A DNA stretch of 55,066 nt from a virus (taxonomy: Duplodnaviria; Caudoviricetes): IMG/VR virus record IMGVR_UViG_3300046170_000069, positions 1 to 55,066 of that record; one strand, 5' to 3'. This document shows, piece by piece, positions 12,885 to 51,116 of this stretch; within the stretch, counting starts at the first letter, position 1; each line of letters begins with the position of its first letter. The notes beneath the pieces are model-generated. The model searched no databases. It was not told where the DNA came from and saw only the letters and a list, made by a program, of their open reading frames with translations. Position numbers and translations under genes: made by a program.

Positions 12885-12907
12885 AAAGGGGCTTAGGCCC
12901 CTTTTTT
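12885..12907. terminator. Bidirectional intrinsic terminator between the convergent arms
   Basis: AAAGGGGC-TTAG-GCCCCTTTTTT where the + and - arms meet. Confidence 0.8.
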
Positions 12908-31815: not shown

Positions 31816-33234
31816 TTATCCCTTGATGATAACGTGCTGGTTAGCAGCACGAGTTACAAGACAGCATTCAGAACGGTAGTGGAAAGTCGCTACGTCACGA
31901 CCAGCATCACCGTTGTTGTTGTGTCCAAGAACTCCACCACCAGTTACCCAGTGCTCCATCTCACGAGAGTATCCGTTAGCCTCTTTGTAGTACATAGCTA
32001 GAGCAGGAGACTTAACACCTGTACGAGCATCAGCTACTTGAGACATTGGAACCATAGCACCTTGTAAGAAGTTAGTAGCACCAAGAAGACTAGGATCGTT
32101 TAGAAGCTTCCAGTCATGCTTATGGAAAGTATATCCACCACGAGTGAATGACTTAAATCCAAGCTTCACAGCCATATCAGCGTCGTTGTTAAACGCACCG
32201 AACTGACCAGCTAAACCAGCAGTAGTTGCAGTAGCAACACCTGAAGCAAGCATATCATCAATAGCAAGATCCTGCTTTCTGTTTACGTACATAGCGTACT
32301 CAGAAGGAGCACCGTTCTTATCCAACTCAAGAATGATATCGTCAAACTCAGCAAATGAATCAAGAGGGTTAGCGTTAGCGTTAGACACTACGATACCTCT
32401 GCCTTCCACAGCTGAAATGTAACCTTCTGAACCAAGACCTGCGTCCTGTGCGTTAGCTAAACCTTGTCCAGCTCCGTCAGTCCAGTCGTTATCGTTTCCT
32501 GATTCAGAGAACAGCATCATCATTTCACGACGGTCTTCAAAGCGCTTACGTGCTTCTTGCTCACCGTACATGAACCATCTGTATTCACCGCCACCGATGT
32601 TTACCCATCCGATGTTAGTTGCTTGTGATCCATTTACTTGGAAACGATCCTTTACAATCATGAATGGATTCTGACGCTTAACCATATCAGCATCAGTGAA
32701 GTGATTTGGTTGCTCAGTTCCCTGACCGTAAAGATTACCAAGATGAATGAAAGCACCTGTATTAGCACCAGAGTAGTTGTCTGTAGCTGTAGCTCCGTCT
32801 AGTGAAGCAACTGTAGCAGTAGTAGAAGTTGTTGGATCAGCTGCCGAAGTAGCGATTACAACATATCTACGGCCATCAGTAGTATCCATAATAACGTCGT
32901 TAACACCGATAGCGTTAGATCCAGCATCGTAGTTAAGAGTCGCTTGATCGCCTGAAACTCCAGAAACACCTGAAGAGTTTACCGCAACTAAACGGTGACG
33001 ACGACCTACCTCGTGGTAACGTACTTCATCAGATGTACCTCCAGCTTGAATAGCTCCTGTCATTTTTAGGAATCCAGTGATGCCTTGCTCACCGTAAGTT
33101 TCTACTAATTCTGGGATTACGAAATCCTTGTTATGGTCTAGTAGAGTACCAATTGTTGTGTAAGTTTCTGGCGTTAATCGCAGGTCTGCTGGAGCTCCGT
33201 CCACACCACCTGCCGCCGCAGCAATAGTAGCCAT
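31816..33234 (-). CDS. Major capsid protein
   Basis: 472 aa; LGFKSFTRGGYTFHKHDWKLLND and HYRSECCL.TRAAN resemble Bacteroidota podovirus MCPs; preceded by an acidic scaffold-like gene and followed by a hairpin. Confidence 0.8.
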   Translation of the reverse strand: MATIAAAAGGVDGAPADLRLTPETYTTIGTLLDHNKDFVIPELVETYGEQGITGFLKMTGAIQAGGTSDEVRYHEVGRRHRLVAVNSSGVSGVSGDQATLNYDAGSNAIGVNDVIMDTTDGRRYVVIATSAADPTTSTTATVASLDGATATDNYSGANTGAFIHLGNLYGQGTEQPNHFTDADMVKRQNPFMIVKDRFQVNGSQATNIGWVNIGGGEYRWFMYGEQEARKRFEDRREMMMLFSESGNDNDWTDGAGQGLANAQDAGLGSEGYISAVEGRGIVVSNANANPLDSFAEFDDIILELDKNGAPSEYAMYVNRKQDLAIDDMLASGVATATTAGLAGQFGAFNNDADMAVKLGFKSFTRGGYTFHKHDWKLLNDPSLLGATNFLQGAMVPMSQVADARTGVKSPALAMYYKEANGYSREMEHWVTGGGVLGHNNNGDAGRDVATFHYRSECCLVTRAANQHVIIKG

Positions 33235-33248
33235 TATTTCTTAATGTT

Positions 33249-34358
33249 TTAGATTTTAAAAGTAAGTTTGTTTGAGTTATTACTCATTAGATTTTTCAAC
33301 TGAGAAGCCAAAGGATTTTCCGTTTGAGGAGTTTCCTGTGGCGCTCCAGAAGAGATGTTAGCTGCATTGTTCACGATACCTCTTTGACCATCACTCATGC
33401 CTTGTCTGTAAGCAGACGAAACAATTTTGTCGATGTTGTCAACCACAGTACGGTGAGAAGACAGCGTTTCATAATCCCAACTACCGTCTTGACGGATGTA
33501 GGGATCAAAGTAATTTTCTAACTGAGAGTTCTTCTCAATTAGTTGTGATCTGTAATCGTCATCAATACCGAAAGAAAAGTTGTTGCCATTACCGAGGTCG
33601 AATTCTAATCCCTCCATCTGGCCAACTTCAGCTTCCATGTCTGAAATCCAATTAGCATCAATCACACTCTCAGCTTGCGGTTGAGAACTAACTTCAGGAG
33701 CCATGTAGGACTGTCTCAGTCCTTCAATACTTTGTTTAGCTTTCTGAGCGTCAATCTTCATTTGAAGTTGAGAAAGCTTAATCTCTTCATCCGTGTGGAT
33801 GTCGGCATCAAGCTTGTATTTGCTTCCGATGAGTAAGTCTAGTTCGGATCTAGAAAGATCAGGGTATTGTCCAGCCATGTCTACACGAATAGCAGTCATA
33901 TCATCCATCTCGGATGTACTTAACTGCTGGTATGCAAACCAGTCTTGTGGAGTTCTACCAGTTTCTTCTACGAACTTAGCAATAGCTTCAACTCTCTCAT
34001 CAAGAGCATTTTGTTGAGGAGTAGACAAAGCGTCTAAAGAAGTAATGTCTCTACCAAGCCTCTCGCTTAAGTAACTAAAGACAGCTTCTTCTACGTCTGA
34101 ATCAGACCACTCAACTGTTTCTTCCTGAGTAGGAGCTACCTGCTCAGAAATATTTTCTTGAGGCTGTTCCTCTGATACTACTGACTCTGGTTGAGCTTCA
34201 ATAGTTGGTTCAGGAGTTACAGTCTCTTCAACAGCTTGAGGCTCCGTTGTTGGAGCCTCTTCTGTAGTTGTCGTTTCTGTTGCTGACCCCATAGAGCCAG
34301 CAAGATCTTGTGGGTTGTCGAATACTTCGAATCCACCGATTGTGTTTTTCTCTTCCAT
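33249..34358 (-). CDS. Putative capsid scaffolding/assembly protein
   Basis: Very acidic, E/P/T-rich N-terminus, directly upstream of the MCP. Confidence 0.65.
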   Translation of the reverse strand: MEEKNTIGGFEVFDNPQDLAGSMGSATETTTTEEAPTTEPQAVEETVTPEPTIEAQPESVVSEEQPQENISEQVAPTQEETVEWSDSDVEEAVFSYLSERLGRDITSLDALSTPQQNALDERVEAIAKFVEETGRTPQDWFAYQQLSTSEMDDMTAIRVDMAGQYPDLSRSELDLLIGSKYKLDADIHTDEEIKLSQLQMKIDAQKAKQSIEGLRQSYMAPEVSSQPQAESVIDANWISDMEAEVGQMEGLEFDLGNGNNFSFGIDDDYRSQLIEKNSQLENYFDPYIRQDGSWDYETLSSHRTVVDNIDKIVSSAYRQGMSDGQRGIVNNAANISSGAPQETPQTENPLASQLKNLMSNNSNKLTFKI

Positions 34359-34379
34359 TATATTTTAATTGTTTTTTTA

Positions 34380-34724
34380 TTATGCAGCTGGACCCCAGTA
34401 GGCAAGAATCTTACCACTAGCGATATCTATCGTATCCCACTCACCGTAAATAGTAAGTCCTTTAGGGAAGGTAGTACCAGTAGTAACGTAGTTACCTTTA
34501 CCGTCGTAGTCATTGTCAGTACCATCAGTACCGAAAGAACCTCCAGTAGTACTGTTATCGACAGCCTCCAACTGAGTGAAGGTTGTGTCTTCTAACATTG
34601 TTACCGCAATGAACACGAATCCAGTAGGACAAGTTAAGTCTTGACCAGTAGTGTCTAGATGCGCTGATCCGAACTGTCCGAACGTTGCTTTGTTCTGAGC
34701 TGCTGGGTTTGTTATCTTAGCCAT
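34380..34724 (-). CDS. Small structural protein
   Basis: FGQFGS...FPKGLTIYGEW..I.I.SG motif; beta-rich. Confidence 0.6.
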   Translation of the reverse strand: MAKITNPAAQNKATFGQFGSAHLDTTGQDLTCPTGFVFIAVTMLEDTTFTQLEAVDNSTTGGSFGTDGTDNDYDGKGNYVTTGTTFPKGLTIYGEWDTIDIASGKILAYWGPAA

Positions 34725-34735
34725 ATCCTAATTAT

Positions 34736-35155
34736 TTATGATCCTGAACCTCCGAAGATTACTGATGAGTTATCGTTACCAAATACTCCGTATTCAACCA
34801 TACTGTCAACTTTCGTTGCGTAAACAGCGTAAGTCTTATCTGGTGATAAAGGAATAAATGCAAACTCACCACCTCCAATCTTTGCAGATAAAGCAGTGTC
34901 GCTTTCAGTTTCGTTACGTAAGTAGATGTAGTTCTCTAAAGACTCATCTAAGTTCTTGATGTAAAGGTATGCTCTGTCGCTTTTGTCGTTTGCTAGATAC
35001 ACGATCATATCGTTTGTATCAGCAGCCGTACCCTTTACTTTAGCTCTCAGCAAGCTGCCACTATCTACAGATAATGCTGATTGCGTAGTTAGATCTAGAG
35101 CGCTACTAAGAACGTCTAGAGAACTGACTCTTAGATTTACTGTTAATGTAGCCAT
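34736..35155 (-). CDS. Small beta-rich structural protein (paralog family)
   Basis: MATLTV...YLYIKN...GEFAFIP. Confidence 0.65.
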   Translation of the reverse strand: MATLTVNLRVSSLDVLSSALDLTTQSALSVDSGSLLRAKVKGTAADTNDMIVYLANDKSDRAYLYIKNLDESLENYIYLRNETESDTALSAKIGGGEFAFIPLSPDKTYAVYATKVDSMVEYGVFGNDNSSVIFGGSGS

Positions 35156-35556
35156 TAGTCTTCAAAGAATAGTGCGTACTCAATAGTCATATTAGACGCA
35201 GATGTATCAATGTCGATGTCGTTAGTTCCGTCCCAAGGGAAGAACGCCCAGTCTCCAGCGTATAACCTACCAAGCGGTAAGTTTCCAGATCCAAGCTCTA
35301 GATTTATATATTCACTAGGAGTAGTAGAAAGATTTCTAACGTAAACTTTGTGAGCAGTATTATCAGAGTATGAAGCCGCAGCAAATAAAAGAGTTGCTGT
35401 TTGAGCCGAAGAATAAAACTTACGAGCTACACCCGTAGTTTGAGACACTCCTGTGTTAGTTCCTGCATTCGTAAGAGTAGCAGTAACAGACAGATTCAAC
35501 ACATCACCTGTTAGGTCAGCACTTGATAGTGTAAGTTGTGCAGTTGTTGTTGCCAT
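35155..35556 (-). CDS. Small beta-rich structural protein (paralog family)
   Basis: MATTTA...VYVRN...GDWAFFP. Confidence 0.65.
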   Translation of the reverse strand: MATTTAQLTLSSADLTGDVLNLSVTATLTNAGTNTGVSQTTGVARKFYSSAQTATLLFAAASYSDNTAHKVYVRNLSTTPSEYINLELGSGNLPLGRLYAGDWAFFPWDGTNDIDIDTSASNMTIEYALFFED

Positions 35557-35574
35557 GATTTATAGTTGTTTTTG

Positions 35575-35582
35575 CAAATATA
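35575..35582 (-). promoter_or_regulatory. Bacteroidota -7 element TATATTTG (head operon promoter)
   Basis: Intergenic, upstream of 35556. Confidence 0.65.
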
Positions 35583-35586
35583 AGGA

Positions 35587-35793
35587 TTATTTCTTTTTGC
35601 CTTTTTTAGCTCGTATCTTAGCAGCTTCACGTTTTCCAAAAGCGCTCTTAACACGACCCATAGCCCAAGCATGTTGAGACGTCTTAGGTCTGTTACCAGA
35701 ACTCATATACGCAGCAAGGCCTCTACGGTACACTTCTTTCTGTGCAGCGTCAAGGCCAGCCATTCCGCCTTTCTTGAACTTCTTGACTTTCAT
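35587..35793 (-). CDS. Small basic protein (DUF5824-like)
   Basis: FKKGG N-terminus; VYRRGLAAY...RP...AWAMGRV motif. Confidence 0.65.
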   Translation of the reverse strand: MKVKKFKKGGMAGLDAAQKEVYRRGLAAYMSSGNRPKTSQHAWAMGRVKSAFGKREAAKIRAKKGKKK

Positions 35794-35957
35794 TACTTAT
35801 TCTTTGCTAGAGCAGCTTCCATCTTTTTACGTTGAGCTGGATCTTTTGCAAGGGCGTCAACTAAGCTTCCACCATCCTTAAAAATTTTACCTCCGTAAGC
35901 GAACATAGGCATGTCTTTCTTTCCACCACCCATGTATTTTTTCATCTTCATTTTCAT
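35793..35957 (-). CDS. Small basic protein with three [FY]xxGG motifs, 54 aa (not in ORF track)
   Basis: MKMKMKKYMGGGKKDMPMFAYGGKIFKDGGSLVDALAKDPAQRKKMEAALAKNK; TAATG overlap. Confidence 0.7.
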   Translation of the reverse strand: MKMKMKKYMGGGKKDMPMFAYGGKIFKDGGSLVDALAKDPAQRKKMEAALAKNK

Positions 35958-35969
35958 AGTTGTAAGTTT

Positions 35970-36155
35970 TTAGATTTTATCGCGTTGTTTCATAAGCTCT
36001 TTTAGTCTGGCAGCTACAGCAGGAGGGAAGCCTTTCTTCTTTCGTTTAGCTTTTGTACCTCTATGCTTTTTGTAGATATCACTAATCTGCTTCATTAGCT
36101 TCTTACGTTTCTCTACATTAGAACTACCACTTGTATATTTCTTATTGAACTTCAT
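35970..36155 (-). CDS. Small very basic protein
   Basis: 61 aa, K-rich. Confidence 0.65.
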   Translation of the reverse strand: MKFNKKYTSGSSNVEKRKKLMKQISDIYKKHRGTKAKRKKKGFPPAVAARLKELMKQRDKI

Positions 36156-36346
36156 TACTTCTTTGGGTGTGAAGCTGTCTTGAATTTAGCTTTAGCTACT
36201 GCTCCTGCGTGAGGAACGTAGTCACCTTCCATAAGGTAGTATCTACCAGACTCTTCCATCCAGTGGTAACCCTTTGGTGGATTTACAGAAATCTTCTTGT
36301 TAGAGATCTTAAGCTTACCTCCTTTCTTGTACTTCTTTACTTTCAT
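36155..36346 (-). CDS. Small basic protein
   Basis: MKVKKYKKGG...PPKGYHWM; TAATG-coupled start at 36346. Confidence 0.7.
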   Translation of the reverse strand: MKVKKYKKGGKLKISNKKISVNPPKGYHWMEESGRYYLMEGDYVPHAGAVAKAKFKTASHPKK

Positions 36347-36657
36347 TACCACTTAACTTTATCAGCCCACCATGCAGCAGACATTTTACCTCTCTTTATA
36401 TTCTTAGCGTGTCTAGCCTTGAAGCTTTTGCGTTTTGCTTTCATACGTGCAGACTCTCCAGCTTTAGGCTTCCCAGCCGTGCCTTTTACAGTACCGACCT
36501 TTTTACCTTGCTGTCCGAATCTAATCAGTTTAATCTTATCGCCTTCCTTAGCTACAACTACGTGTGACTTCGTTGGGTGATTAGGTGTACGTTTGGCTCT
36601 GTTGTAACCGCTTACTCCAGCTCTAGCTAATCTAGGATCTTTTTTCTTTGCTTTCAT
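36346..36657 (-). CDS. Small basic protein (IRFGQQG...SFKARH...AAWWA family)
   Basis: 103 aa; motif widespread in aquatic viruses, function unknown. Confidence 0.75.
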   Translation of the reverse strand: MKAKKKDPRLARAGVSGYNRAKRTPNHPTKSHVVVAKEGDKIKLIRFGQQGKKVGTVKGTAGKPKAGESARMKAKRKSFKARHAKNIKRGKMSAAWWADKVKW

Positions 36658-36995
36658 TAGAACCAGCTTATAAGTATTTCATCCACAGCGCTTTGTACCT
36701 CTTCCCGTGAAGTTTCTAACTGCATCATAATATTCCCCTGAAATCTTTCTACCTCCTCTCCGTCGTTAAAGATTATGACAGTAGGCACTACAACAATCTT
36801 ATGTTCTTGCTGAAGATCAGGGCTTGCAAGTATGTCTACTCTTTTACCTTTGCAATCAGACAACTCCTCAATCCAGTCTACACTATTAACTTTATTAAAT
36901 GGTGCGTTGAACTCAACAACACAGATGCCATTTTGCGGTATAGAACCAGCAAAAGACAGCATAGAAAATAAAGATATATAGAGTGCTGCCTTCAT
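36657..36995 (-). CDS. Exported thioredoxin-fold protein lacking CxxC
   Basis: Signal peptide (..LSFA); VVEFNAPFN in place of WCxxC; VPTVIIFNDGEEVERF cis-Pro segment. Confidence 0.75.
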   Translation of the reverse strand: MKAALYISLFSMLSFAGSIPQNGICVVEFNAPFNKVNSVDWIEELSDCKGKRVDILASPDLQQEHKIVVVPTVIIFNDGEEVERFQGNIMMQLETSREEVQSAVDEILISWF

Positions 36996-37279
36996 TACTT
37001 TAGTTTATCTATTTTTTCCTCAATACGAGTAAGATCACTCTTTAGTTCTGAAACATCCTCTTGCGTCGTCATAATAGTTTGACGAATCAATTGGTCTTTC
37101 ATATCAAACTCCATGCGAGTTACATCTGGCGGTAATGGCTCTGGTAATTCTTTAGCTAAAGCTATGTCTGCTTGAAGAGCAAACCACATCCCAATAAGGG
37201 CTGCTAGCCCTGCTGCACCCAGCCCTATTGTTTTAAGGTCTAGGGTTACTTTAGTATCTTCTCCAATTTGTTGAGCCAT
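36995..37279 (-). CDS. Single-TM membrane protein with C-terminal coiled coil
   Basis: IGLGAAGLAALIGMWFAL hydrophobic segment; VSELKSDLTRIEEKIDKL heptads. Confidence 0.75.
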   Translation of the reverse strand: MAQQIGEDTKVTLDLKTIGLGAAGLAALIGMWFALQADIALAKELPEPLPPDVTRMEFDMKDQLIRQTIMTTQEDVSELKSDLTRIEEKIDKLK

Positions 37280-38349
37280 CAGTATAATTGATAATTTAGT
37301 CCTACAGAAAAGTCATGCCATTCACGGTTCCAGTATCTGTTATACTTTCCCTCTAAGAAAACGCCAAGACTCTTGTTTAATCTCCAGCCAAAGATAAGGC
37401 CAAATCCATAATCGATCCATTGCTCGTCACCAGTCGTCTGGAAGTACGAGTACTCACCGCCTGTGTTCAAGTGGTAGGGCATAACACTAGCCCAGCTGTG
37501 TGTCCAGAAATCCTTAGTGTAATGGTAGAAATCATACCCCACGACCAAAGAGTAGTTCCACTGATCTGGCAGTTCGTTTCTCTTTTTATTTGTGTAGTCT
37601 CTCAGAACCTCTGGTATCACCACCTGCTCCCATACATCGATGCTGTTCGCTACTAAGGTACCGTCTGGAGCAAAGTACTCACCCTGCTGTACATCTATAG
37701 TGTACCCTTCTTCAATAGCTAGATTAGTGTAGTGTAGATTACCGTTAAACAATAGCCAATCCTCAAGAGGATCGTAACCGTAAGGCTCTGATATTCTTTC
37801 AGCCACACCGATGTTCAAGCTAAACTTCTTGTTGATGTTTAGTCTGTATCTCTGTGAAGCCTCGAAGTATCTTACGTCTGCGAAACCATCCTGTAAGTAT
37901 TCAGTCTTTACAATCCAGTGCTTCGCTACGTATCTAAGAAAGTAGTCTTGATCTAAGAACTCTCTACCTTGTTGTCTTCTCCAATCAGCTTCGAATAAAA
38001 ACTCAAAACCATTAATTCTACCTATAGTTGCTGCGTCACTGTAAGATCTTTCTGTACCGTCGTAGAATACGTTTGCACGGTTTTCATATCCGAATCTAGC
38101 TATCTTTCGTACACCAGCAGTTATAGAGTAGTCGAATGGAGTCTCCATTATGTCGGTTTGTAACCCGCCGATAACAGAATAAATCTTATCATCAGCTACA
38201 GAGTTACCACCACTGACAGCAGTGTAGAATGTAGCACCTCTGAAAACTTTCTTTAATGATTGACCTTTAGCTTGAGTTGACCCTAGCAGAAAAACTACCA
38301 GCATCAATAGAGCATACACAACTGCAGTTAAGTCCTTCTTCTCTGTCAT
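37279..38349 (-). CDS. Putative outer-membrane beta-barrel protein
   Basis: Signal peptide ending AKG-Q; aromatic-rich amphipathic strands; C-terminal beta-signal-like FSVGLNYQLY. Confidence 0.7.
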   Translation of the reverse strand: MTEKKDLTAVVYALLMLVVFLLGSTQAKGQSLKKVFRGATFYTAVSGGNSVADDKIYSVIGGLQTDIMETPFDYSITAGVRKIARFGYENRANVFYDGTERSYSDAATIGRINGFEFLFEADWRRQQGREFLDQDYFLRYVAKHWIVKTEYLQDGFADVRYFEASQRYRLNINKKFSLNIGVAERISEPYGYDPLEDWLLFNGNLHYTNLAIEEGYTIDVQQGEYFAPDGTLVANSIDVWEQVVIPEVLRDYTNKKRNELPDQWNYSLVVGYDFYHYTKDFWTHSWASVMPYHLNTGGEYSYFQTTGDEQWIDYGFGLIFGWRLNKSLGVFLEGKYNRYWNREWHDFSVGLNYQLY

Positions 38350-38522
38350 TAGATTTCAAATCCGAAGTTGAAGACCATAAGTCTAAACTTCTTATTAGTA
38401 CATCCTTCTTCGCAGAATAGGCAAGCCTTAACTTCAAGTACAGTAACAGTACCTAGTCTAAGGTTAAGTTCGTACTTGCTCTTTTTGTTTGTAGCCTTCC
38501 AGCTGTTTATCCAATTAATCAT
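38349..38522 (-). CDS. Small protein, 57 aa (not in ORF track)
   Basis: MINWINSWKATNKKSKYELNLRLGTVTVLEVKACLFCEEGCTNKKFRLMVFNFGFEI; ATGA and TAATG overlaps. Confidence 0.7.
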   Translation of the reverse strand: MINWINSWKATNKKSKYELNLRLGTVTVLEVKACLFCEEGCTNKKFRLMVFNFGFEI

Positions 38523-40747
38523 GATTTGATAATTTTTTGGTTGATAATAATTCCGTTATATAATACAATAACCTCGTACACTCCGTTAGGGAGCTCTCTG
38601 AGGTCGATAATAGTTTCTCTAGTGTCAGCTACTACAAGTTGACCAAATGCGTTGTAAACTCTTGTAATAGACCCCTGTGGCGCCTGTATGTTTAAGAAGC
38701 TGTTTGTTGGGTTAGGGTAGATAGCAAAGTCTCTAACGTTGTCAGTAGGTATTCCTAATGGCCATCCTTGATTGCAGTAGTCATATAAACTAACACACGA
38801 ACCATCCCATTCAACCTCACAGCAGTAAGCGTCTATTTCGATAACCCAAGCAAAGCAAGAGTCGTTTAACCAGTAACCGTCTCCGTATGGTTCTCCTAGT
38901 CCAGTAACACAGTCCTCAGCTTCGTACAAACAATTCTCGTTATCTGCTACATTAGCTAGTGGATCAAAGTTGTATGCATCTAAGTCCATACATCCTGCTA
39001 CTGGATCAATGCAATTTCCGTTATCGGTATTAGCGTTCTCATCGTAGTTAAGTGCTAGTGGATCCATACATCCGTAGATGTATTCAATACAGCTACCGTT
39101 GTCTGTATTGGCGCTAGGATCGTAGTTAAACATCGTAGGATCAGTACACCCAAACGCTACTTCAATACACTCACCTGCATCAGTAGCAGTAGCGTCGTAG
39201 TTGAAAGCGGTCGGGTCTTGACAGCCTACTACCTCTAGCTCATCACAGATACCGTCACCATCAGTATCGTTGATACAATGATTCATACAGTCATAGTATT
39301 GTACAGGGTATGTACACTCAGTATTCGTGTTAGCTTCTTCGTCGTAATCACAAGCTACTGGATCAGTACATCCGTAGATGTGAGGAATACACCCATCTCC
39401 ACAGAATGGAGTGAAGTGGTATATCGTCCACTCTGGAGTAGAGAATGGTTGTAGTGCGCTTTGTCCGTTGTTAATGAATGGATTATCACCTTCCGTTAGA
39501 AGCGTGTCACCGTTTTCATTCAGGACAAGTATAGAGTTGTGAAGAGTCTGGAAAGCAAGCTCCTGTGGAGACTGCTGCTGAGTACCAGCTTGGAAGTAGT
39601 ATACGTCAACCTCTTCATCAGAGTCTAGCGTTAGCTCCCACGTATGAGAGAACTCATTAGGGCTTACACTGAATAACCACTGCTGATCGCCTTGCACCAT
39701 GCCGATAGTAGATGCTCCCCATCCGTCACCAGCGTCATCCTCAAGTATAATCTCAAGAGTACAAGGACTGTCGTAGTCAGCTATAGTAGCAAGACTATCG
39801 TAGTTCAAGGCTGTTGGATCTACACATCCCCAAGTATGCAATGTCATACAAGTGTCTTGAATAGTAGCAAGTGGGTTATAATCTACGTAGTCGTCATCCA
39901 TACAGCCAACCACATCTGGATCTGGCTCACATGGTTCAGTGAAGATAGGACCAGAGTACATAACGATACCATCCCATTCCTCAAACGCTAAGTCCTCAAG
40001 CTCCCATAGAATGCTATCGCATGAAGTAATTACACATGCTCCATCCTGACCGCCTGACGCAGAACCATTTAGTCCATCACCGAATAAGTCGTATAGGATT
40101 AACTCAAAGCCTAGCTCCACACAAAAATCATAAGTGTATGTCAGCATCTGATCGCCGAAGTTGTACTCGTTAACAAGCACCTCGTGATAAGGCTGTCCAG
40201 TTGATAGGTTTACTAGCGTGAATCCAGTTTCGTTAGGCCATGTATCAAGAGTAAGCTCCATAGTTACTAGAGCCTGATCCTCATTACACGATACAACATT
40301 ACAACTTCCGTTATCTATGTTAGCCCATGGATTGAAGTTGTTAGCTAAATCATTCGTACATCCGAACACAGGGACTTCGCAAGGCTCAAGAGTAAAGTCA
40401 ACTGTATCTGCAGCTGTGTTAAACTCAAAGTTTGCTTCGTACAATCCGCAGAAGTTCTTCAGCTCGTAGTTACCCTCACCGAACTCACAACATATACCGT
40501 CACCAAAAACATCACTAATGATGAAAGTGTAATCACCTGCTGGTAAGAAGACTGGTGTAGTTAGATATTGATTAGGCTGATACTGTGGGCTTGTTACAAG
40601 AACACTATCGTCTTGCATAATGACCCAAGAAGTTTCATTTGGATATTGATCAGCCTGTACAGCTACATCTAGCCAGCTACCTTGACCTAAAGCTGAGGTT
40701 AATGTAAATAAAGATAAAAGGTTGGTAATAAGTAATTTACGAATCAT
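38519..40747 (-). CDS. T9SS type A sorting-domain protein with Cys-rich GCxD repeats
   Basis: Signal peptide ending ALG-Q; eight GC[TMVQ]x...N[YF] repeats; CTD IYPNP...VYNAFGQLV...LPNGVYEV...QKIIK. Confidence 0.9.
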   Translation of the reverse strand: MIRKLLITNLLSLFTLTSALGQGSWLDVAVQADQYPNETSWVIMQDDSVLVTSPQYQPNQYLTTPVFLPAGDYTFIISDVFGDGICCEFGEGNYELKNFCGLYEANFEFNTAADTVDFTLEPCEVPVFGCTNDLANNFNPWANIDNGSCNVVSCNEDQALVTMELTLDTWPNETGFTLVNLSTGQPYHEVLVNEYNFGDQMLTYTYDFCVELGFELILYDLFGDGLNGSASGGQDGACVITSCDSILWELEDLAFEEWDGIVMYSGPIFTEPCEPDPDVVGCMDDDYVDYNPLATIQDTCMTLHTWGCVDPTALNYDSLATIADYDSPCTLEIILEDDAGDGWGASTIGMVQGDQQWLFSVSPNEFSHTWELTLDSDEEVDVYYFQAGTQQQSPQELAFQTLHNSILVLNENGDTLLTEGDNPFINNGQSALQPFSTPEWTIYHFTPFCGDGCIPHIYGCTDPVACDYDEEANTNTECTYPVQYYDCMNHCINDTDGDGICDELEVVGCQDPTAFNYDATATDAGECIEVAFGCTDPTMFNYDPSANTDNGSCIEYIYGCMDPLALNYDENANTDNGNCIDPVAGCMDLDAYNFDPLANVADNENCLYEAEDCVTGLGEPYGDGYWLNDSCFAWVIEIDAYCCEVEWDGSCVSLYDYCNQGWPLGIPTDNVRDFAIYPNPTNSFLNIQAPQGSITRVYNAFGQLVVADTRETIIDLRELPNGVYEVIVLYNGIIINQKIIKS

Positions 40748-40899
40748 CTTAAAGAGTTTACAGAGTGAGTCACCTCTACTTGTATTGTCGATCTACTAGG
40801 TGTTGCTGTTATAGCTGAAGGTAAAGATGCGGTTGCGTTTACTACGGTTGCTTCAGACACACCGATAGATCCTGAAGATATAGAAAGTGTTACATCCAT
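40744..40899 (-). CDS. Small S/T/V-rich protein, 51 aa (not in ORF track)
   Basis: MDVTLSISSG...VNSLR; ATGA overlap with the T9SS cargo gene. Confidence 0.6.
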   Translation of the reverse strand: MDVTLSISSGSIGVSEATVVNATASLPSAITATPSRSTIQVEVTHSVNSLR

Positions 40900-40901
40900 G
40901 A

Positions 40902-41351
40902 TTAAACGTTACTAGCGTCGCTATTAATTACAAAGCTTCCAGTAAGTATAGTTGTTGCTTTGTTAGCAGAGTCTACATTGTTAGCAGCGTTTGTATCAAC
41001 GTACTGAATATCATACTTGTATCTACCGCTATCTACAGCTTTCATATCTGCAGCAGAAGCTTCAAACTTTACGATACCAGTAGCATCACTTGATGTAGTA
41101 TCTGATGTGTCAGTTATAGAAACTGATATCTCAGCCAGTCTATCTGCAGACTCTTCGAGCCCATCAGTAGCTAGTGCAACTACAGCTGGGTTAGCTTTTG
41201 TTACCAGCATAAAGAATGTAGCTTCATTACCACCGTGAAGATTAATAGCGCTACCGCTTGAATCCTTCAATGTTAATGTTAAGCTAAAAGAATCACCTCG
41301 TCTGCATGTGATGTCAAGATTCTTTGATATGTCTAAGTTTACTCTAGCCAT
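40902..41351 (-). CDS. BppU-N-like beta-sandwich adaptor protein
   Basis: DITCRRGDSFSLTLTLKD...GRYKYDIQ...TILTGSF pattern. Confidence 0.6.
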   Translation of the reverse strand: MARVNLDISKNLDITCRRGDSFSLTLTLKDSSGSAINLHGGNEATFFMLVTKANPAVVALATDGLEESADRLAEISVSITDTSDTTSSDATGIVKFEASAADMKAVDSGRYKYDIQYVDTNAANNVDSANKATTILTGSFVINSDASNV

Positions 41352-43804
41352 TATTGTTCTAATATATCTTCGATTATTTTTTCAGCGGTTTCGTTAGACT
41401 CATTCTCTAACTCACCTCTTTTTCCCTGTCTTTGAGATATTAGCTTGCTTTGTTCTTTAGCTTGCTTTTTAACTCTATTGTCTTTTCTATCCTCTTTTAG
41501 CACCTCAATCTTTTCTTTGAACTCTTGATCATCAGTCTTAAATCCTAATGTAGCCTGCGCTCTGATCATTTCAATCTCCTTTTGTAACTGATGACGAGCC
41601 TGAGCAACCTGAATATCTAGCTGAGCTTTCATCTGTAGCTTTTGAGCTTCTATCTGAGCCTCCATTTGCATCTCTTGCTGTCTAGCTTGAGAGGCCGCCT
41701 GAGAAGCTTGTTGAGCTTGCTGCGATTGAACTTGAGAGTTTTGCATAGCTTGATCCTGCATTCTCTTTATTCTCTTCTTACGTCTTACCACAAGAAGTCT
41801 TTCAGCTTGATTTATATCCTTAAGGTTTCTGATGGCAATAGCATCTTCAATATCTAGCTCTTTCTGTTGCAAGGCTATTTGAATATTCTGCTCCAGATAC
41901 GCCTTCTCTTTATCTTCCATCTCCTTCTGTACAGTGACACCGAAGTTAAACATTGGTAGGTCACTGAAAGAACTTAGAACATTCATATTAGATTCACCAA
42001 TAGCGTTTTGGTAGATCTTCATTAGTACTGAGTTAGGTGGTATAATCTGCAAACACTTAACGATGTCAGAGCAAACCTTCTTGAACAGAATCATAGATGC
42101 ATTTGTAATATCATATATAGCATTGTTACCTGCAGCAATAGCCTGTTCTCTAACACCAACAAGTGCATCACCCTTAGGAGTAGATGCATCCATCGCTTCG
42201 TTAATTCCTGTAGTATCTCTGATAAGTCTCAGGTAGTGATTGTAGATACCAATAAGCTCATTGATATTACGGATGCTGTTTCCTATTTCACGTACAGGTG
42301 GGTTTTGGAAACCTCCTTCTGGGTTCTTACTTCTGTAGTAGAATACACCTGTCTGCTCGTAGATGTCGTGTAACTCTAACGGTTGTAACTCACCACCCTT
42401 ACCGAGCTGGACATTCTCTAGTCCTTCAATGTCAATGATAAGTCCATCAGGCTTTGCTTTAGCGATTGCTTGCTGAAGCTTCAGGTGTGTGATCTGCAGC
42501 ATATCTGCAAAACCTATACAGCTATCTACCATAGACTTAGGCATCATGTTTCTGAAGTTCGTTGCGACTACAGAATACCCTAATCTAGTTCTACCTATGT
42601 CGTGCATATTTCTAGGCACATTAGTCTTAAGGCCGTAGTTAAACAGCTTCTTAGCACCTAGCACATACATGCCTCCGTACACAGTTTCAATATCCATGCG
42701 GTGAGGCTTTCTTTCGAACACGCCTCCAGTCTTCTCCTTGTAATTAAACCCCTCATAAAAGAAGTTTACATTACCGTATCTATTTTCTTTTTCTTCAAAG
42801 TGCATACAGTCAACAGAGATAAACTCGAAGTCTAGTACTTCAATTCTATACTCATCATAACCATATGAACTTCTATTGTTTACAGAGTCGTGATGAGTTC
42901 TATAAAAATTAGACGTATCCTGAGACTTACTTCTTGCTGCTTCTATTGCAATACTCTTGTACTCCTCTTCTGTAAACTTATCTCCTGCAATACGCTTAAG
43001 TTCAAGAATAGTCATATTTTTAATATGACCTGCATATACCAAATCCCCAAAGCTTGGATCTTCTGTGTAGCTATGAACGAATGTAGCTGGATCAACGTAG
43101 TCTGTCTTGATTCCGTAGCTAGGATCGTTTGTTCTTCTAGTAACACATATACCAATATCTACTAAGTCCTTTACGTTTCTTCTGTAGATGCTATCAGTAA
43201 AGTTGTTCCAAGATAGAGTTAAGTTTGTACCAATCTGAGCTGCAATCTCAGCGTCAGTTTTAATGTTGGTGTCTAAAAAGATATCCGCTTCCTCTAATGT
43301 ATCGGGCAACTTGTCTGGATCTTCATCTAGTACAAGGCCTCCAGTCTCCTGCTTTAGATCCATAAGATCTTCTTTTACAGCAACTTGAGTTTTAATTCGC
43401 TGCTTCTCTTTGTTCTTTTCAGAAGATGAAAGAGGATCGATAGCCTCAAGGTTTGGATATGGGTTGCGAGACAAGATCTTGTTTGTAACGACTCGAGCAA
43501 ACTTAGGAAGGATAGGTACTGGAGTGAAATCCAAATTAACTAAACTACCGTCTGCGTTGTTCGCATCAAGGTTCGTTAAGATCTGCTTATAGATGTTTGT
43601 ATCTTGAGTTCCGTTAGCGTAATCTCTATTCCTATCGAATATCTTATTACGCTTACTAATCATAGAACTAGCATTATGTCTTGTACCCCACTGTGACTCA
43701 ATGGCTTTTGCATATTGCAGTCCGTAAGCTTCTTGAGACTTGGCTTGCTGTGGTGCAAGCGCATCAGGGAAGCCTGACTTTTTCTTATTACTATTATACA
43801 TCAA
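41351..43804 (-). CDS. Portal protein
   Basis: 817 aa directly after the terminase; PVPILPKF, IRDTTGINEA.D.STP and a Q-rich coiled-coil C-terminus like crAss-type portals. Confidence 0.85.
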   Translation of the reverse strand: MMYNSNKKKSGFPDALAPQQAKSQEAYGLQYAKAIESQWGTRHNASSMISKRNKIFDRNRDYANGTQDTNIYKQILTNLDANNADGSLVNLDFTPVPILPKFARVVTNKILSRNPYPNLEAIDPLSSSEKNKEKQRIKTQVAVKEDLMDLKQETGGLVLDEDPDKLPDTLEEADIFLDTNIKTDAEIAAQIGTNLTLSWNNFTDSIYRRNVKDLVDIGICVTRRTNDPSYGIKTDYVDPATFVHSYTEDPSFGDLVYAGHIKNMTILELKRIAGDKFTEEEYKSIAIEAARSKSQDTSNFYRTHHDSVNNRSSYGYDEYRIEVLDFEFISVDCMHFEEKENRYGNVNFFYEGFNYKEKTGGVFERKPHRMDIETVYGGMYVLGAKKLFNYGLKTNVPRNMHDIGRTRLGYSVVATNFRNMMPKSMVDSCIGFADMLQITHLKLQQAIAKAKPDGLIIDIEGLENVQLGKGGELQPLELHDIYEQTGVFYYRSKNPEGGFQNPPVREIGNSIRNINELIGIYNHYLRLIRDTTGINEAMDASTPKGDALVGVREQAIAAGNNAIYDITNASMILFKKVCSDIVKCLQIIPPNSVLMKIYQNAIGESNMNVLSSFSDLPMFNFGVTVQKEMEDKEKAYLEQNIQIALQQKELDIEDAIAIRNLKDINQAERLLVVRRKKRIKRMQDQAMQNSQVQSQQAQQASQAASQARQQEMQMEAQIEAQKLQMKAQLDIQVAQARHQLQKEIEMIRAQATLGFKTDDQEFKEKIEVLKEDRKDNRVKKQAKEQSKLISQRQGKRGELENESNETAEKIIEDILEQ

Positions 43805-43819
43805 GGGATTCTATTTTTG

Positions 43820-43827
43820 CAAATATA
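43820..43827 (-). promoter_or_regulatory. Bacteroidota -7 element TATATTTG
   Basis: Intergenic between terminase and portal. Confidence 0.65.
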
Positions 43828-43842
43828 CTAAATCTGCTGTTT

Positions 43843-45966
43843 TCAAGAGATTGGCTTATATCTCCTAAAGAACTTCTTCTCATTGAAGTTGCTTGGCTTT
43901 TTCTTTTGCTTGACTTTTTGCGCACCAAGTAGGGCCAAACCTGCACTGATAGTCAAGTCAAACTTTGTTCTGTTTGTGATGTTAAATCCAATCCAGTCTT
44001 CTAAAGTTCTGTTAAAATACATTCTACCCATCTCACCAGTTTCTCTGTTGAATCCTACGTGATTGTGTATGTATGCTTCTATGGCGTGAGCATGAGCTTG
44101 TATTACATCGTTAGAGTTAGAAGGTATACCTTTTGTCTTTACGTTAACCTTAGAGTTAGGTGAAGATAAGTGCGCAGGCCTACCAAGTAAGTAACCGTCG
44201 TAACCCCTTGATTCAAAGTGTCTTGCGATACCGTACTTATTGTTCTCGATTAATATTGGGTAACCGTAAAATACAGAAGCCATCAATACATCTTCGTAGA
44301 AGATTTTAGCTAGAGGTGGACGAGACGCATACTCCAATACAAACATATTTGCTGGATGCTCCATATGAAATTTGTTGTAAAGGTGTAACGCTCCCTTTGA
44401 CCCTCGTCCGTCGACGGTGGCGTCAAGGTCGTAGGAGTCGACGCCTCCCACTCCTAGCTCTGCATTCGGTGGTACAAGCTTTCCTCGCTCATACTTCTTT
44501 ATGTTTCTTAATTCTTGTGGTGGCATCCAAGCTACTCTAAACCTGCCTTGCGGATCTGGTTTAAATACTACCTCGGTATCAGCCACACCATTCTTCCAAA
44601 CAAAGTTTCCTACTACTACAGGGTTTGGAAATAGTTCATCATTATGTTGTATCTGTTCGTATATCTGACCGATGTTAAATAGGCTACCATCAATACTATC
44701 TCTGAATGCTTCATCCTCTGTGAAAGGAAACTGTCGAGTAACCTCGTTAAGCTCTGATGGATCGTCTTTGAGGCTGTCTCTTTCATTCTTCAGGAAAGTC
44801 TTTGATCCGAATATAATGTCTTCACCATCTAGCCCTTCTATGACTGAAGTAGGATCTTCTGCAACAGGATGTCCATACTTATCGAAAAAACCCTCAAGCG
44901 AATCATACGCAGGAATAAACAGCCTGTACAAACCAGATCTAGTTCTTCCGTTAGAATTTCTTTCGTCTGGATTAGAGTCTTCCCAAAGATCTTTGTACTC
45001 CTTACCTCCCTTATCCATAGGGTTTACGGTACTGCCTACCAGCGCTTTACCAATAATCTTTCTACCTACAATCAAGCAGGTTCTCTGTATCCTCCAAGCA
45101 TCTCTTATATCTGTAGGCTTCTCCCACTTACCTGCCTCATCGAGGTACATGATATGGAGTTTTTCACCATCGTATGCGTTATTGGTTGTGTTCTTCCAAT
45201 TGATTACGGTATTGAGTGCTTCACCTATCTGAGATGTTTTATTGTTTTTAGTTATGCGCTTCGATGGTTCACGGAACGCTAACTCCATACGTGGGTTAGT
45301 CGTACCATCCTGAATAGGTTTGAAAAAGAATGGGTAGTTACGGAACATATACACCACCTTTTTCATGAAGATATTCTCCTGAGCATCCTTACCAGTTTTC
45401 GACTGTATGCCAAGAAGCTTATCTTTGACTTGCGTCGCTTCATCAACAAGTACAGAAGAGCAGATATTAGTATAACCAGAACGACGGCACTTAGTGTAAA
45501 GCTGACCAATACAACGTGGATCAGCTTCGCACGCAGCCATATGTAAAAAGATCTCACGTTGAAAGTTTAAGAAGTTAGGATATCCGATGTCTAGCTTGGT
45601 CCACTGAAGCATCATGTAGTGCCTCCCCGTAATATATGTAGGTGTACCGTTGTTATAAAACCAAAAGCCCTCACGCCTACGCCTAAACTCTTCTTCGATA
45701 TATGGACGAAACTTCTCTCTGAACTCCCTTGGCATTTCAGCCCACTCATCCATAGAACGAACACGAGACAGTTCCTTCGGCATAGATATCCTCTCCCACA
45801 TTTGCAGAAGCTTTGATTTGCTATGTCCTTGAATTTGTTTCTTAGGCGGCCTTTTCGGAAGACAAATGAGTAGCCCACCGAGTTCGATAACTTCACCCTC
45901 CGTACCACTGGGACAAATCTTAACAGCAGGTTCTTCATAATCTTTAAGTTCAAGTAGGGCCGACAT
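43843..45966 (-). CDS. terL: Terminase large subunit
   Basis: KCRRSGYT Walker A, YLDEAGKW Walker B, GSTVN, nuclease GVDSYD and IENNK. Confidence 0.9.
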   Translation of the reverse strand: MSALLELKDYEEPAVKICPSGTEGEVIELGGLLICLPKRPPKKQIQGHSKSKLLQMWERISMPKELSRVRSMDEWAEMPREFREKFRPYIEEEFRRRREGFWFYNNGTPTYITGRHYMMLQWTKLDIGYPNFLNFQREIFLHMAACEADPRCIGQLYTKCRRSGYTNICSSVLVDEATQVKDKLLGIQSKTGKDAQENIFMKKVVYMFRNYPFFFKPIQDGTTNPRMELAFREPSKRITKNNKTSQIGEALNTVINWKNTTNNAYDGEKLHIMYLDEAGKWEKPTDIRDAWRIQRTCLIVGRKIIGKALVGSTVNPMDKGGKEYKDLWEDSNPDERNSNGRTRSGLYRLFIPAYDSLEGFFDKYGHPVAEDPTSVIEGLDGEDIIFGSKTFLKNERDSLKDDPSELNEVTRQFPFTEDEAFRDSIDGSLFNIGQIYEQIQHNDELFPNPVVVGNFVWKNGVADTEVVFKPDPQGRFRVAWMPPQELRNIKKYERGKLVPPNAELGVGGVDSYDLDATVDGRGSKGALHLYNKFHMEHPANMFVLEYASRPPLAKIFYEDVLMASVFYGYPILIENNKYGIARHFESRGYDGYLLGRPAHLSSPNSKVNVKTKGIPSNSNDVIQAHAHAIEAYIHNHVGFNRETGEMGRMYFNRTLEDWIGFNITNRTKFDLTISAGLALLGAQKVKQKKKPSNFNEKKFFRRYKPIS

Positions 45967-45969
45967 ATC

Positions 45970-47802
<1,833 letters not shown>

Positions 47803-48066: not shown

Positions 48067-48654
48067 TTATTCAATTATATACATTAGGTCGACTGCACGA
48101 GTTCTGAAGTACTCCTTACCGTCTATTTTTATTCTGTAGTCTCTGTTCTGTTTGAAGCCTACGATATCTCCCTGCTTCACTCCCATCTCCTTAGCTTCTT
48201 CACAAAGGTAAGCTACTTTCGCTGTGGTTGGTAATTTTTCCTCAAGAGAAACAACTTCGATAATACCCTTCTCTTCTTCCTCTTCTTCTATAGCTTCTAG
48301 AAGGCACCATCCAGCTAGGCATCTGATCTTACCATCCTTCTTGCTTTTGTAGGCGATAGCTTGGTTGCTTAACGCTACGTCTGGATCGTAGCTTACAACG
48401 AAGTGCTTGTCGTTACCTGTAAGCTTCTGTCCTTCGTTTAGTACAACTAGGTGGTGGAAGTATAGCTCGTCACCAACCTCTACCCCAGTATTATATCTAT
48501 AAGGTGGGGATACCACAGGCCCTGATGTTACCCTGTTAGGGAACTGACCATTTTCGAATCTAGTGTCTATATATAGATTAAGACCTGAGTCAGTCTCTAT
48601 CGTGTCGTTGATCTGCTTTTCCAGTTCAACAACGAATACATGTAAAGCTTTCAT
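48067..48654 (-). CDS. groES: Co-chaperonin GroES-like protein with two Cpn10 domains
   Basis: MKALH.FVV...SGL.I...G.VV...VEVGD, then a second unit IRCLAGWCLL...GII...GVKQGDIV...IKIDGKEY...DL. Confidence 0.75.
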   Translation of the reverse strand: MKALHVFVVELEKQINDTIETDSGLNLYIDTRFENGQFPNRVTSGPVVSPPYRYNTGVEVGDELYFHHLVVLNEGQKLTGNDKHFVVSYDPDVALSNQAIAYKSKKDGKIRCLAGWCLLEAIEEEEEEKGIIEVVSLEEKLPTTAKVAYLCEEAKEMGVKQGDIVGFKQNRDYRIKIDGKEYFRTRAVDLMYIIE

Positions 48655-50601: not shown

Positions 50602-51116
50602 TCTCCTTGTATAAATTCTTTTAGTTGAATCGGTGATACAAGTAAACACTCAGCTAGATCTCTGTACTCTATCGTTACCTCCTCACCAGCTTCTAGTGCT
50701 GCGGCAATCGGTGGGTACACTCTCATATATGCTGCTGTGCTCTTCCCTATAAAACCGTTTTTTTTGATGTTGTTGTTTTCTTGCGTGTCACCCAGTAGTA
50801 AGCACCCTGCAGTGTCCTCATCAGTATTACCGCAGTGAAGAAGAATATATTCAAAGTTTGGCACATCCAAGACATGAAGCATGCCTTTATGTATGTCAGC
50901 AAATCTCTTACTGTATTTGGCGTGATATCCACCCACAGTTCGAAAGCCGATACGATACTCTCCTTCAGGTATGCAAGTTTCTCCGTAAACTTTTTCCTTG
51001 CGACTTTCGTCTTCCAAGGTGTAGCAAAGAAATCTTCTTTCATCATTAGTTATGTCGAAGAGTATTCCGTTAGTGGAATCCTTTCCTTTGTTGATTCTTA
51101 TTACTTCGAGTTTCAT
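50595..51116 (-). CDS. DUF5675-family protein (His/Cys peptidase-like, candidate endolysin)
   Basis: CYTLED, CIPEGEY and ILLHCGNT..DTAGCLLLG. Confidence 0.8.
   Translation of the reverse strand: MKLEVIRINKGKDSTNGILFDITNDERRFLCYTLEDESRKEKVYGETCIPEGEYRIGFRTVGGYHAKYSKRFADIHKGMLHVLDVPNFEYILLHCGNTDEDTAGCLLLGDTQENNNIKKNGFIGKSTAAYMRVYPPIAAALEAGEEVTIEYRDLAECLLVSPIQLKEFIQGEC

Follow-up and report, generated by a model that had tools for sequence, protein, structure and literature searches.

A phage cassette of predicted envelope proteins with a conserved gene trio and, in one branch, a type IX secretion cargo

The cassette and its products

We examined a cassette of six open reading frames (ORFs) in a viral genome of 55,066 bp, the IMG/VR record IMGVR_UViG_3300046170_000069. 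The window, i.e. the whole stretch of DNA analysed here, comprises that record in full; it carries direct terminal repeats and has a completeness rating of 100%. The ORFs are named by their length in amino acids (aa) and follow each other on the minus strand in the gene order g51-g742-g57-g356-g94-g112, with overlaps of 4, 4, 1, 1 and 1 nt; g356, g94 and g112 together are called the trio. The cassette lies directly downstream of the portal gene and of a 149-aa gene (g149), with no intergenic space. An earlier reading of this DNA, made from its letters and a list of its ORFs (the sequence-only reading), had described six consecutive overlapping ORFs behind the portal, and all six were recovered on the minus strand as it had placed them. 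The main features are given below (CTD, C-terminal domain; T9SS, type IX secretion system).

40744 to 40899, minus strand: g51, a 51-aa ORF from the ORF list, no family match, doubtful gene
38519 to 40747, minus strand: g742, Cys-rich secreted multidomain protein (PF18962, TIGR04183)
38525 to 38722, minus strand: type A T9SS CTD of g742, residues 676-741 (six-frame TIGR04183 match, 37.8 bits, E 9.5e-11)
38349 to 38522, minus strand: g57, small protein with an optional Cys loop (39 unique homologues)
37279 to 38349, minus strand: g356, secreted, outer-membrane-beta-barrel-like protein by signal peptide and strand pattern, trio member 1
36995 to 37279, minus strand: g94, single-pass membrane protein (hydrophobic span 18-37), trio member 2
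36657 to 36995, minus strand: g112, exported or anchored thioredoxin-fold protein without CxxC (PF00085 borderline), trio member 3
41351 to 43804, minus strand: portal gene, upstream border of the head-module block (phrog_6547, 2.3e-200)
12893 to 13336, minus strand: holin candidate (phrog_3427 'holin', 6.4e-23)

Signal peptides were called by one crude heuristic rule on N-termini. By this rule 7 of the 71 window ORFs were signal- or anchor-like, and 4 of these 7 were consecutive cassette genes. Among homologues, a signal-peptide-like N-terminus was present in all 98 unique g356 sequences and a signal- or anchor-like one in all 78 g94 sequences, and signal-like or signal/anchor-like N-termini were present in 66 of 88 g742 and 69 of 90 g112 homologues, respectively, some of the misses in the last two being due to a wrong start-codon choice. 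The homologues fall into two branches (see below), the window belonging to branch 1. A small residue-Q site ended the hydrophobic core in 98/98 g356 and 66/67 g742 sequences, in 65/65 g356-like and 68/68 g112-like sequences of branch 2, and in the host proteins PorP/SprF (20/20) and PorV (18/18), against 2-17% in control windows taken from the mature parts. Branch-1 g112 had the site in only 25 of 78 sequences and may therefore stay anchored. Such sites follow the Q-rule reported for signal peptidase I substrates of Bacteroidetes (PMC5837995, PMC10653852; available parts of both papers). Judged by these N-terminal motifs, the sites argue for Bacteroidota hosts in both branches, and Q-rule signal peptides may serve as a cheap marker of host phylum.

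The sequence-only reading had described g742 as a protein with a signal peptide and a type A CTD, and had named TIGR04183 as the model with which to check it. Residues 676-741 of the 742 matched TIGR04183 (33 bits, cut-off 23) and PF18962 (32.3 bits, cut-off 27), and the TIGR04183 match was the only one in the six-frame genome. The same model matched 38 of 39 g742 homologues (best 1.5e-12), and the profile of the CTD alignment matched solved T9SS CTDs (7pzj, 8glk_D, 8glj_D, gingipain). With the signal-peptide-like N-terminus, this bears out the description: by sequence, g742 is a T9SS type A cargo. No other recognisable domain was found in g742 by family searches or with the alignment profile. 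The g742 alignment contained 68 invariant columns, 24 of which were Cys; the N-terminal domain was the most variable part (residues 1-80, majority identity 0.41-0.45, about 20% gaps). Relatives of the window portal infect Flavobacteriaceae, and host T9SS components were found in all sampled genomes of G001's family (PorV in 21/21, PorP/SprF in 26/26).

Two side observations concern g742. Of the 40 strain differences listed for four seawater runs, 34 fell within g742; these are the positions listed, 178 further ones standing outside the list, so the count is a hint only. They clustered at window positions 39173-39326 (roughly residues 474-525) and 39986-40200 (roughly residues 182-254), where microdiversity may have a hot spot. 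In addition, a precomputed annotation placed PF26780 on many g742 homologues (P0121 and others), with a family name and position that could not be read.

The second secreted product, g356, had been described as a 356-aa protein with a signal peptide and an aromatic C-terminal beta-signal. The signal peptide was found throughout the family and the branch-1 proteins end in hydrophobic or aromatic residues (NYVIL, NYVIF or NYQLY), but the g356-like proteins of branch 2 end in NITLR or NITLK, i.e. in R or K, which counts against a barrel. In a diverse alignment (A7, which includes members 24-41% identical), approximately 12-14 stretches of alternating hydrophobicity flanked a central insert at about residues 185-262; by hydrophobic-moment scan, few strands were found in a shallow alignment and many in A7. 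Among named ESM clusters, the nearest were those of OmpG-type porins and of autotransporter barrels, which scored 0.94 with 165-168 features in common; we take this as a lead only. Going by these patterns, g356 is probably an outer-membrane beta-barrel that carries a central insert.

No named family was found for g356. It had no PHROG match, its profile gave 0 matches to PDB sequences at E up to 10, no accepted Pfam family was found with 40 members (E up to 1) or afterwards with 10 members, and 39 diverse members had no match in NCBIfam. SH3_5 was rejected as evidence, since its 15.6-19.8 bits stayed below the cut-off of 22 and the 17 of 40 members concerned are closely related and not independent. 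The host cargo barrels were rejected as well. In profile-profile comparisons (hhalign) with alignments built from the sampled genomes, A7 against 18 PorV sequences (NF033710) gave a probability of 12.4%, and A1 and A7 against 20 PorP/SprF sequences (PF11751) gave 6.9% and 10.9%; in every case the signal peptides alone aligned. In one metagenomic protein of 314 aa (P0335), an FGE-sulfatase domain (PF03781, 1.6e-25) is fused with a stretch matching approximately the final 110 residues of the g356 family (E 1.6e-22). The gliding/T9SS lipoproteins GldJ and GldK also contain FGE-sulfatase folds. P0335 is a single record and a possible assembly chimera, and it was not used.

The g94 product showed one hydrophobic span at about residues 18-37, in agreement with the single-span membrane protein proposed earlier, followed by a helical-looking, highly conserved C-terminal tail of about 57 residues. 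The mean column identity of its alignment (A3) was 78%, and g94 is the most conserved gene of the unit (55-64% identical between branches, where g356 is at about 30%). It had no spanin PHROG match, and an ESM search returned viral hypothetical clusters only, the nearest named ones (Cmr5, DUF7365, DUF2730) scoring 0.83-0.87, which is chance level. Some longer proteins (P0404, P0408, P0411) fuse g94 to a thioredoxin (Trx)-like domain, with an N-terminal membrane span followed by the Trx fold. P0404 has no signal peptide between the two parts, and therefore the g94 tail and the exported Trx domain would face the same membrane side.

For g112, the earlier description as an exported Trx-fold protein was kept in part. 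An exported-type N-terminus is present and the cis-Pro motif VVVPT is kept in the alignment (A4), with P71-T72 invariant and C48 nearly invariant. The family scores were borderline or low: PF00085 reached 23.4 bits against a cut-off of 23.5 and covered profile positions 47-93 only, and TIGR01068 reached 23.4 bits against a cut-off of 96.8 (E 5.2e-05). The sequence FNA(S)(F/W)N stands in place of WCGPC and CxxC was found in 0 of 33 aligned members, which excludes the usual thiol-disulfide chemistry. In a sub-branch found on contigs of 120-155 kb (L075, L082, L141, L144, L157), the g112 homologue begins with a lipobox-like FFTISC and may be a lipoprotein there.

Two small ORFs complete the cassette. 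The 57-aa Cys-containing ORF of the sequence-only reading is a real conserved small gene that accompanies the branch-1 cassette as an accessory; it has 39 unique homologues, aligned (A5) with a mean column identity of 70%. In-frame indels affect the Cys loop, which is optional, and none of the 39 had a signal-like N-terminus. As for g51, tblastn found only relatives of 96-100% identity and one locus at 42%, no family match was obtained, and the ORF fills a variable junction between the 149-aa gene and g742. Thus, all six ORFs of the proposed module exist as such, but g51 is doubtful as a gene.

Distribution, branches and mobility of the unit

We found 154 confirmed IMG/VR matches for g356 and 83 for g742. 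Branch-1 counts refer to 52 unique g356 variants whose contigs extend at least 5 kb to either side: g742, g356, g94 and g112 occurred together in all 52 of these loci, in some of them in the order g356-g94-g112-g742. Branch 2, the larger of the two, was uncovered with the fused g94-Trx form as query (176 IMG/VR matches). Its g356-like proteins are 390-420 aa long and about 30% identical to those of branch 1, and the trio was present in the same order in 76 of 80 fetched loci. A model derived from the g742 family detected a g742 homologue or CTD in 0 of these 80 loci, TIGR04183 matched in 0 of 5 whole branch-2 records, and no type B CTD above the cut-off was found in those 5 records or in the record of L105. 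The trio is thus the conserved core, and the T9SS cargo g742 together with g57 is an addition in the window's branch only. The synteny check proposed earlier for related phages showed that the cassette genes do occur together, but the system does not centre on the T9SS cargo, since branch 2 keeps the trio without g742 or a CTD. The earlier idea of a phage-encoded envelope system is retained with this shift of centre: four consecutive products are of exported or membrane type and one is a T9SS type A cargo, but the trio is what the system is built around.

The two branches also bear on the main rival to the lysis-linked interpretation developed below, namely surface remodelling or receptor masking. 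Here g356 would serve as anchor and g94 and g112 would assist export, while g742 would be the effector, which would mask receptors, exclude other phages, or make cells adhere to particles or neighbours. The type A CTD and signal peptide of g742 fit this, as do its variable N-terminal domain and, as a hint only, the concentration of strain differences in g742; late expression would be compatible with shielding progeny from debris, and variable T9SS-tagged genes of a cryoconite phage were interpreted likewise (PMC7468147, available text). Nevertheless, g356 is not merely a cargo anchor, because the trio persists in branch 2, where neither g742 nor a type A or type B CTD was detected. In addition, nearly all members of its clades carry the trio, and its conservation there is strong, which is not typical of exclusion genes, and g356 is unrelated to the host cargo-handling barrels PorV and PorP/SprF. 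On balance we consider surface remodelling rather unlikely.

The cassette was found only in phages. It occurs on more than 100 phage contigs, and a scan of the genomes of 185,579 species gave 6 g356 matches, all on contigs of metagenome-assembled genomes (MAGs) of unrelated, incoherent taxonomy. We searched the g356 profile against 301 genomes of Flavobacteriaceae type, the family of one such MAG, and obtained that short MAG contig and one marginal match (E 0.003). Contigs from four independent seawater runs bridge both junctions between the cassette and the head genes (for example X4, 32868-37335 and 40357-42653; X14, 40380-43963; X8, 34884-38330), and the GC content is even across the region (0.40-0.43). 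An assembly artefact or captured host DNA, for which we found no point in favour, has next to no probability, because independent seawater contigs bridge the junctions and the 301 Flavobacteriaceae-type genomes gave no clear homologue. The complete record with terminal repeats agrees with this, and the question raised in the sequence-only reading, whether the region is a chimeric host insert, is settled in favour of a phage.

The g356 family is abundant in seawater. A large protein collection held 3531 clusters at 90% identity, none of them named or with a Pfam domain, and 405 representatives at 50% identity; the window stretch was found nearly intact in seawater runs of at least 14 studies beyond its possible sources. 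Among 50,697 GenBank phage records, g356 occurred in 0 and g742 gave just a 57-residue repeat match. This abundance (3531 clusters, at least 14 studies), the porin and autotransporter barrels nearest in the ESM search (0.94, a lead only), and the signal peptide and strand pattern would suit a role in envelope upkeep or uptake, with g356 as a porin or channel provided by the phage, g94 and g112 as factors helping it to assemble, and uptake or integrity late in infection as the benefit. We regard such a role as improbable: g356 has no similarity to porin families in Pfam, NCBIfam or PDB sequences, transcription together with late head or lysis genes would come late for uptake, and the tight link to lysis genes and to g742 would be left unexplained.

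The position of the cassette differed among relatives. In the window, the large terminase, GroEL and GroES-like genes lie upstream of the portal, and a scaffold-like gene and the major capsid gene lie downstream of the cassette. Portals of phages of Flavobacterium (elemo), Cellulophaga, Tenacibaculum and Maribacter (87 records) share about 30% identity with that of the window. In an elemo phage and in MW202828, scaffold and capsid genes come immediately after the portal, and so the approximately 7 kb between portal and scaffold in the window are extra. In G302, whose portal is 66% identical, the portal-scaffold block still contains g149, g133, g139, g114 and the small basic genes but no cassette, which lies after a holin homologue instead; the movable unit therefore runs from g742 through g112. 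A quick maximum-likelihood tree of g356 separated branch 2 with 100% support, its starred branches force at least 4 changes of portal label and at least 6 of lysis label, and sister cassettes (L094, L096) were found in different contexts. The cassette is a discrete mobile unit, and the position behind the portal, which the sequence-only reading had described, is one of several, others being beside holin or endolysin genes.

These arrangements also speak to the view that the products are virion or assembly proteins, i.e. head or tail components or assembly factors. The cassette does lie inside the head module in the window's clade, and small g133/g139-like proteins are found near it in some other lineages. 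However, four consecutive products have Sec signals or membrane spans, the unit moves where the order of the head module is fixed, no structural PHROG matches were obtained, and in distant relatives nothing stands between the portal gene and those for scaffold and capsid. We therefore give this view very little credence.

Lysis neighbourhood and proposed role

In branch 1, 24 of the 52 loci had the cassette at the portal position, and none of these had a lysis candidate within 3 kb; of the 28 loci at other positions, 25 had a holin and/or endolysin candidate within that distance. Among 40 branch-2 loci with flanks of at least 4 kb, 32 had a holin or endolysin candidate within 3 kb, 3 had a DUF5675 gene only (not counted) and in 5 none was detected. 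Taking the well-flanked non-portal loci of both branches together, 57 of 68 had a lysis candidate within 3 kb. Homologues of the window holin candidate (74-79% identical) lie immediately upstream of the cassette in L047, L053, L060 and L062; L062 has a contiguous holin-g742-g356-g94-g112 arrangement, and in L047 a DUF2272 protein stands between the holin and g742. DUF2272 is placed in the NlpC/P60-amidase group in the available part of a published account (PMC10318531). Endolysin candidates included a gene in L075 that matches several endolysin PHROGs (best 3e-17) and starts 19 nt after g112, a phrog_894 endolysin (3.6e-28) downstream in L105, and an endolysin with peptidoglycan-binding and amidase domains as another lysis partner. 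The window's own endolysin was not identified among its genes.

A DUF5675 protein is encoded in the window at 50595-51116 on the minus strand (PF18925, 3.3e-26; phrog_1501), and in L062, L221 and L230 homologues 65-66% identical to it are found at a distance of 1-2 kb from the trio or cassette. We considered DUF5675 as an endolysin candidate, but BLASTP showed it to be dissimilar to the M15 peptidases encoded by the elemo phage and by MW202828, and it was dropped from the lysis counts.

We also searched for lipoproteins by lipobox scan. No lipobox ORF was found in or beside the window cassette or near the holin, and, together with the missing spanin PHROG match of g94, this means that no canonical spanin was seen in the window. 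In branch 2, lipobox ORFs, some of them Pro-rich, were present near the trio in 22 of 51 loci. Pro-, Asn- and Tyr-rich lipoproteins stand beside branch-2 trios at L222:6634-6984, L240:8641-9078, L293:8363-8770 and L250:6319-7032, the first three having in common a motif around HVLA/VLAIT...GDT. Paralogues of g94 also occur near some branch-2 trios; one of them, L293:6693-6998, is a second g94-like single-pass protein. These lipoproteins and g94 paralogues look like o-spanin and i-spanin candidates, respectively.

We tentatively favour, with somewhat less than even confidence, the reading that the cassette is a late, envelope-spanning accessory to lysis or release, in which g742 would be a T9SS-delivered surface partner in one branch. 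A lysis-linked role is suggested because the trio is inherited together, is mobile as a unit, and lies near holin or endolysin genes in most non-portal loci, with several arrangements and lysis families involved. Further points in its favour are the topology of the products (Q-rule signal peptides, one span in g94), the coupling of g94 with a Trx-like domain in the fused proteins, and the fact that no canonical spanin was seen. The trio also looks core-like rather than like an occasional extra, because g94 is 55-64% identical between branches, compared with about 31-34% for the portals of G305 and the window. The sequence-only reading had listed receptor masking or superinfection exclusion, adhesion, vesicle loading and outer-membrane disruption as possible roles; outer-membrane disruption, or another lysis-linked role, is now the best supported of them, given the lysis neighbourhood and the cargo-free branch.

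Under this lysis-linked reading, the cassette genes would be transcribed with the late genes. The g356 product would be exported by Sec and then inserted in the outer membrane, g94 would sit in the inner membrane as a single-pass protein with a short, highly conserved periplasmic helix, and g112 would be a redox-inactive thioredoxin fold in the periplasm, so that the trio proteins would occupy all three envelope layers of a Bacteroidota host. They may assemble into an envelope-spanning complex that acts with holin and endolysin at the end of infection, and the complex would either break up or free the outer membrane, or else govern the state of the cell surface during lysis. In branch 1, g742, as a disulfide-rich multidomain protein, would reach the cell surface via the host T9SS and act there as a surface partner, perhaps docked on g356.

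Several observations weigh against this proposal. The cassette of the window lies about 24 kb from the holin and inside the head module, as in the 24 portal-position loci of branch 1, and the holin label in the window is a PHROG name only. The association with lysis genes is strong in numbers, but the neighbourhood loci are not independent lineages and about four arrangement types carry most of the counts; it may also reflect an insertion hot spot, since unrelated extra genes tend to accumulate where late operons end. The short, highly conserved g94 tail (about 57 residues) is unlike known i-spanins, the window cassette has no outer-membrane lipoprotein, and the branch-2 g356-like proteins do not end in an aromatic residue. 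A spanin-like job also gives no reason for a T9SS-exported partner of 742 aa. Finally, the cultured relatives (elemo and Cellulophaga phages) have no trio, and lysis of related hosts is thus possible without it.

A bolder version of the lysis-linked reading, which we hold to be doubtful, is that the trio constitutes an unrecognised class of lysis machinery of Bacteroidota phages. It would be a three-part envelope-spanning device for a spanin-type step, in which an integral outer-membrane protein replaces the lipoprotein, and a T9SS surface protein would have been recruited to it in one branch. If true, a host secretion system would feed the exit apparatus of a phage.

Known systems and further features of the genome

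To our knowledge, the way in which marine Flavobacteriia phages breach the outer membrane is poorly known. In two-component spanins such as lambda Rz/Rz1, the i-spanin has an N-terminal span and a long periplasmic coiled coil, and the o-spanin is a small outer-membrane lipoprotein. The cassette is alike in that a predicted inner-membrane single-pass protein with a periplasmic helical tail is paired with a probable outer-membrane partner, and in that the genes lie side by side and, in most relatives, near holin or endolysin genes at the end of the late operon. It differs in having a 330-aa secreted barrel-like protein instead of a small lipoprotein as outer-membrane partner, in always carrying a third, Trx-fold protein, in the short (about 57 aa) and conserved tail of g94, in the lack of a spanin PHROG match for g94, and in the distance of the window unit from the holin.

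Other known genes share single aspects of the cassette. Lambda Lom and Bor, T5 Llp and Cor are single phage genes for outer-membrane proteins or lipoproteins, mostly of temperate phages or with early expression; such genes also lie near tail or lysis genes, but the cassette is multi-gene, would be co-transcribed with late genes, and comes from a genome in which no integrase was found. In particular, a six-frame search of the 55,066-bp genome gave no Phage_integrase or Resolvase match, in line with what the sequence-only reading had stated, and there was no tRNA gene in the window. TlpA, ResA and CcmG are membrane-anchored periplasmic thioredoxin-like proteins, and the fused P0404, P0408 and P0411 resemble them in their N-terminal span followed by a Trx fold, but the cassette's g112 has FNA(S)(F/W)N at the CxxC position.

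SprB/SprF, the PorP family and PorV are the cargo-barrel pairs and shuttles of the host T9SS. As in these, the gene of a CTD cargo adjoins one for a signal-peptide-bearing outer-membrane protein of 300-400 aa. However, the profile-profile probabilities were 7-12% with signal peptides alone aligning, the cassette cargo is of type A and not type B, and g356 has no clear homologue in the 301 genomes of the host family. Among phages, the cryoconite 'Cryophage' (Bellas et al. 2020) was described, in the available text, as a 'unique occurrence' of T9SS cargo encoded by a phage (PMC7468147). Its proteins likewise have type A T9SS sorting domains and are thought to be exported by the host system, but, as far as that text goes, they come from three separate, highly variable, enzyme-like genes (endoglucanase, GH39, PA14; PMC7468147), whereas here a single Cys-rich protein, not an enzyme, is part of a conserved cassette together with three or four partners, whose genes also occur without it. 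Literature searches, with supplements outside their coverage, returned nothing on the cassette or the trio, and PMC7468147 was the only report of phage T9SS cargo found. A survey states, in its accessible part, that Bacteroidetes phages carry only unimolecular spanins (PMC12596118).

The trio is among the best-conserved genes in two large groups of abundant seawater phages, with no named relative and no cultured carrier. The cassette would combine three host export routes, namely Sec, probably BAM (the beta-barrel assembly machinery) and, in one branch, the T9SS. We place it among phage envelope or lysis accessory genes, and there is a fair chance that it represents a new class of outer-membrane lysis device. 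A lysis-linked role, if true, would be a new solution to the outer-membrane step, and surface remodelling, if true, would make it the first case of a lytic phage with a conserved surface-display system of several genes; either would offer a concrete, testable way into what happens to the envelope late in infection in phage-host pairs of ecological importance.

Other features of the genome are reported here as side observations. The GroEL gene (45970-47517, minus strand; phrog_5725, 1.8e-160) and the GroES-like gene (48067-48654, minus strand) lie just upstream of the terminase gene, and the GroES-like protein has a 110-aa N-terminal extension, with Cpn10 at residues 110-192; elemo phages likewise encode GroEL/GroES-like proteins. 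In the early region, a 47-aa ORF (2194-2337, plus strand) has a good lipoprotein signal with the lipobox LTSC at residues 23-26, and it was the sole convincing lipobox ORF of the genome in a regex scan.

Downstream of the cassette, four small, very basic ORFs (68, 54, 61 and 65 aa; 35587-36657, minus strand) have the near-identical N-terminus MK[VM]KK[YF]KKGG. They come after a basic 103-aa protein (phrog_7595, 1.1e-36) that is weakly similar to a 'minor head protein and DNA pilot' family. A common leader on small basic head-module proteins is reminiscent of the capsid-targeting sequences of internal head proteins. Finally, g133, g139 and g114 (133, 139 and 114 aa; 34380-35556, minus strand) lie between these basic ORFs and the scaffold gene and have no export signals; g133 and g139 resemble paralogues by eye. 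Copies of the three genes adjoin the cassette in L067, L076, L058, L113 and L116, and they remain in the head module of G302, where the cassette lies elsewhere.

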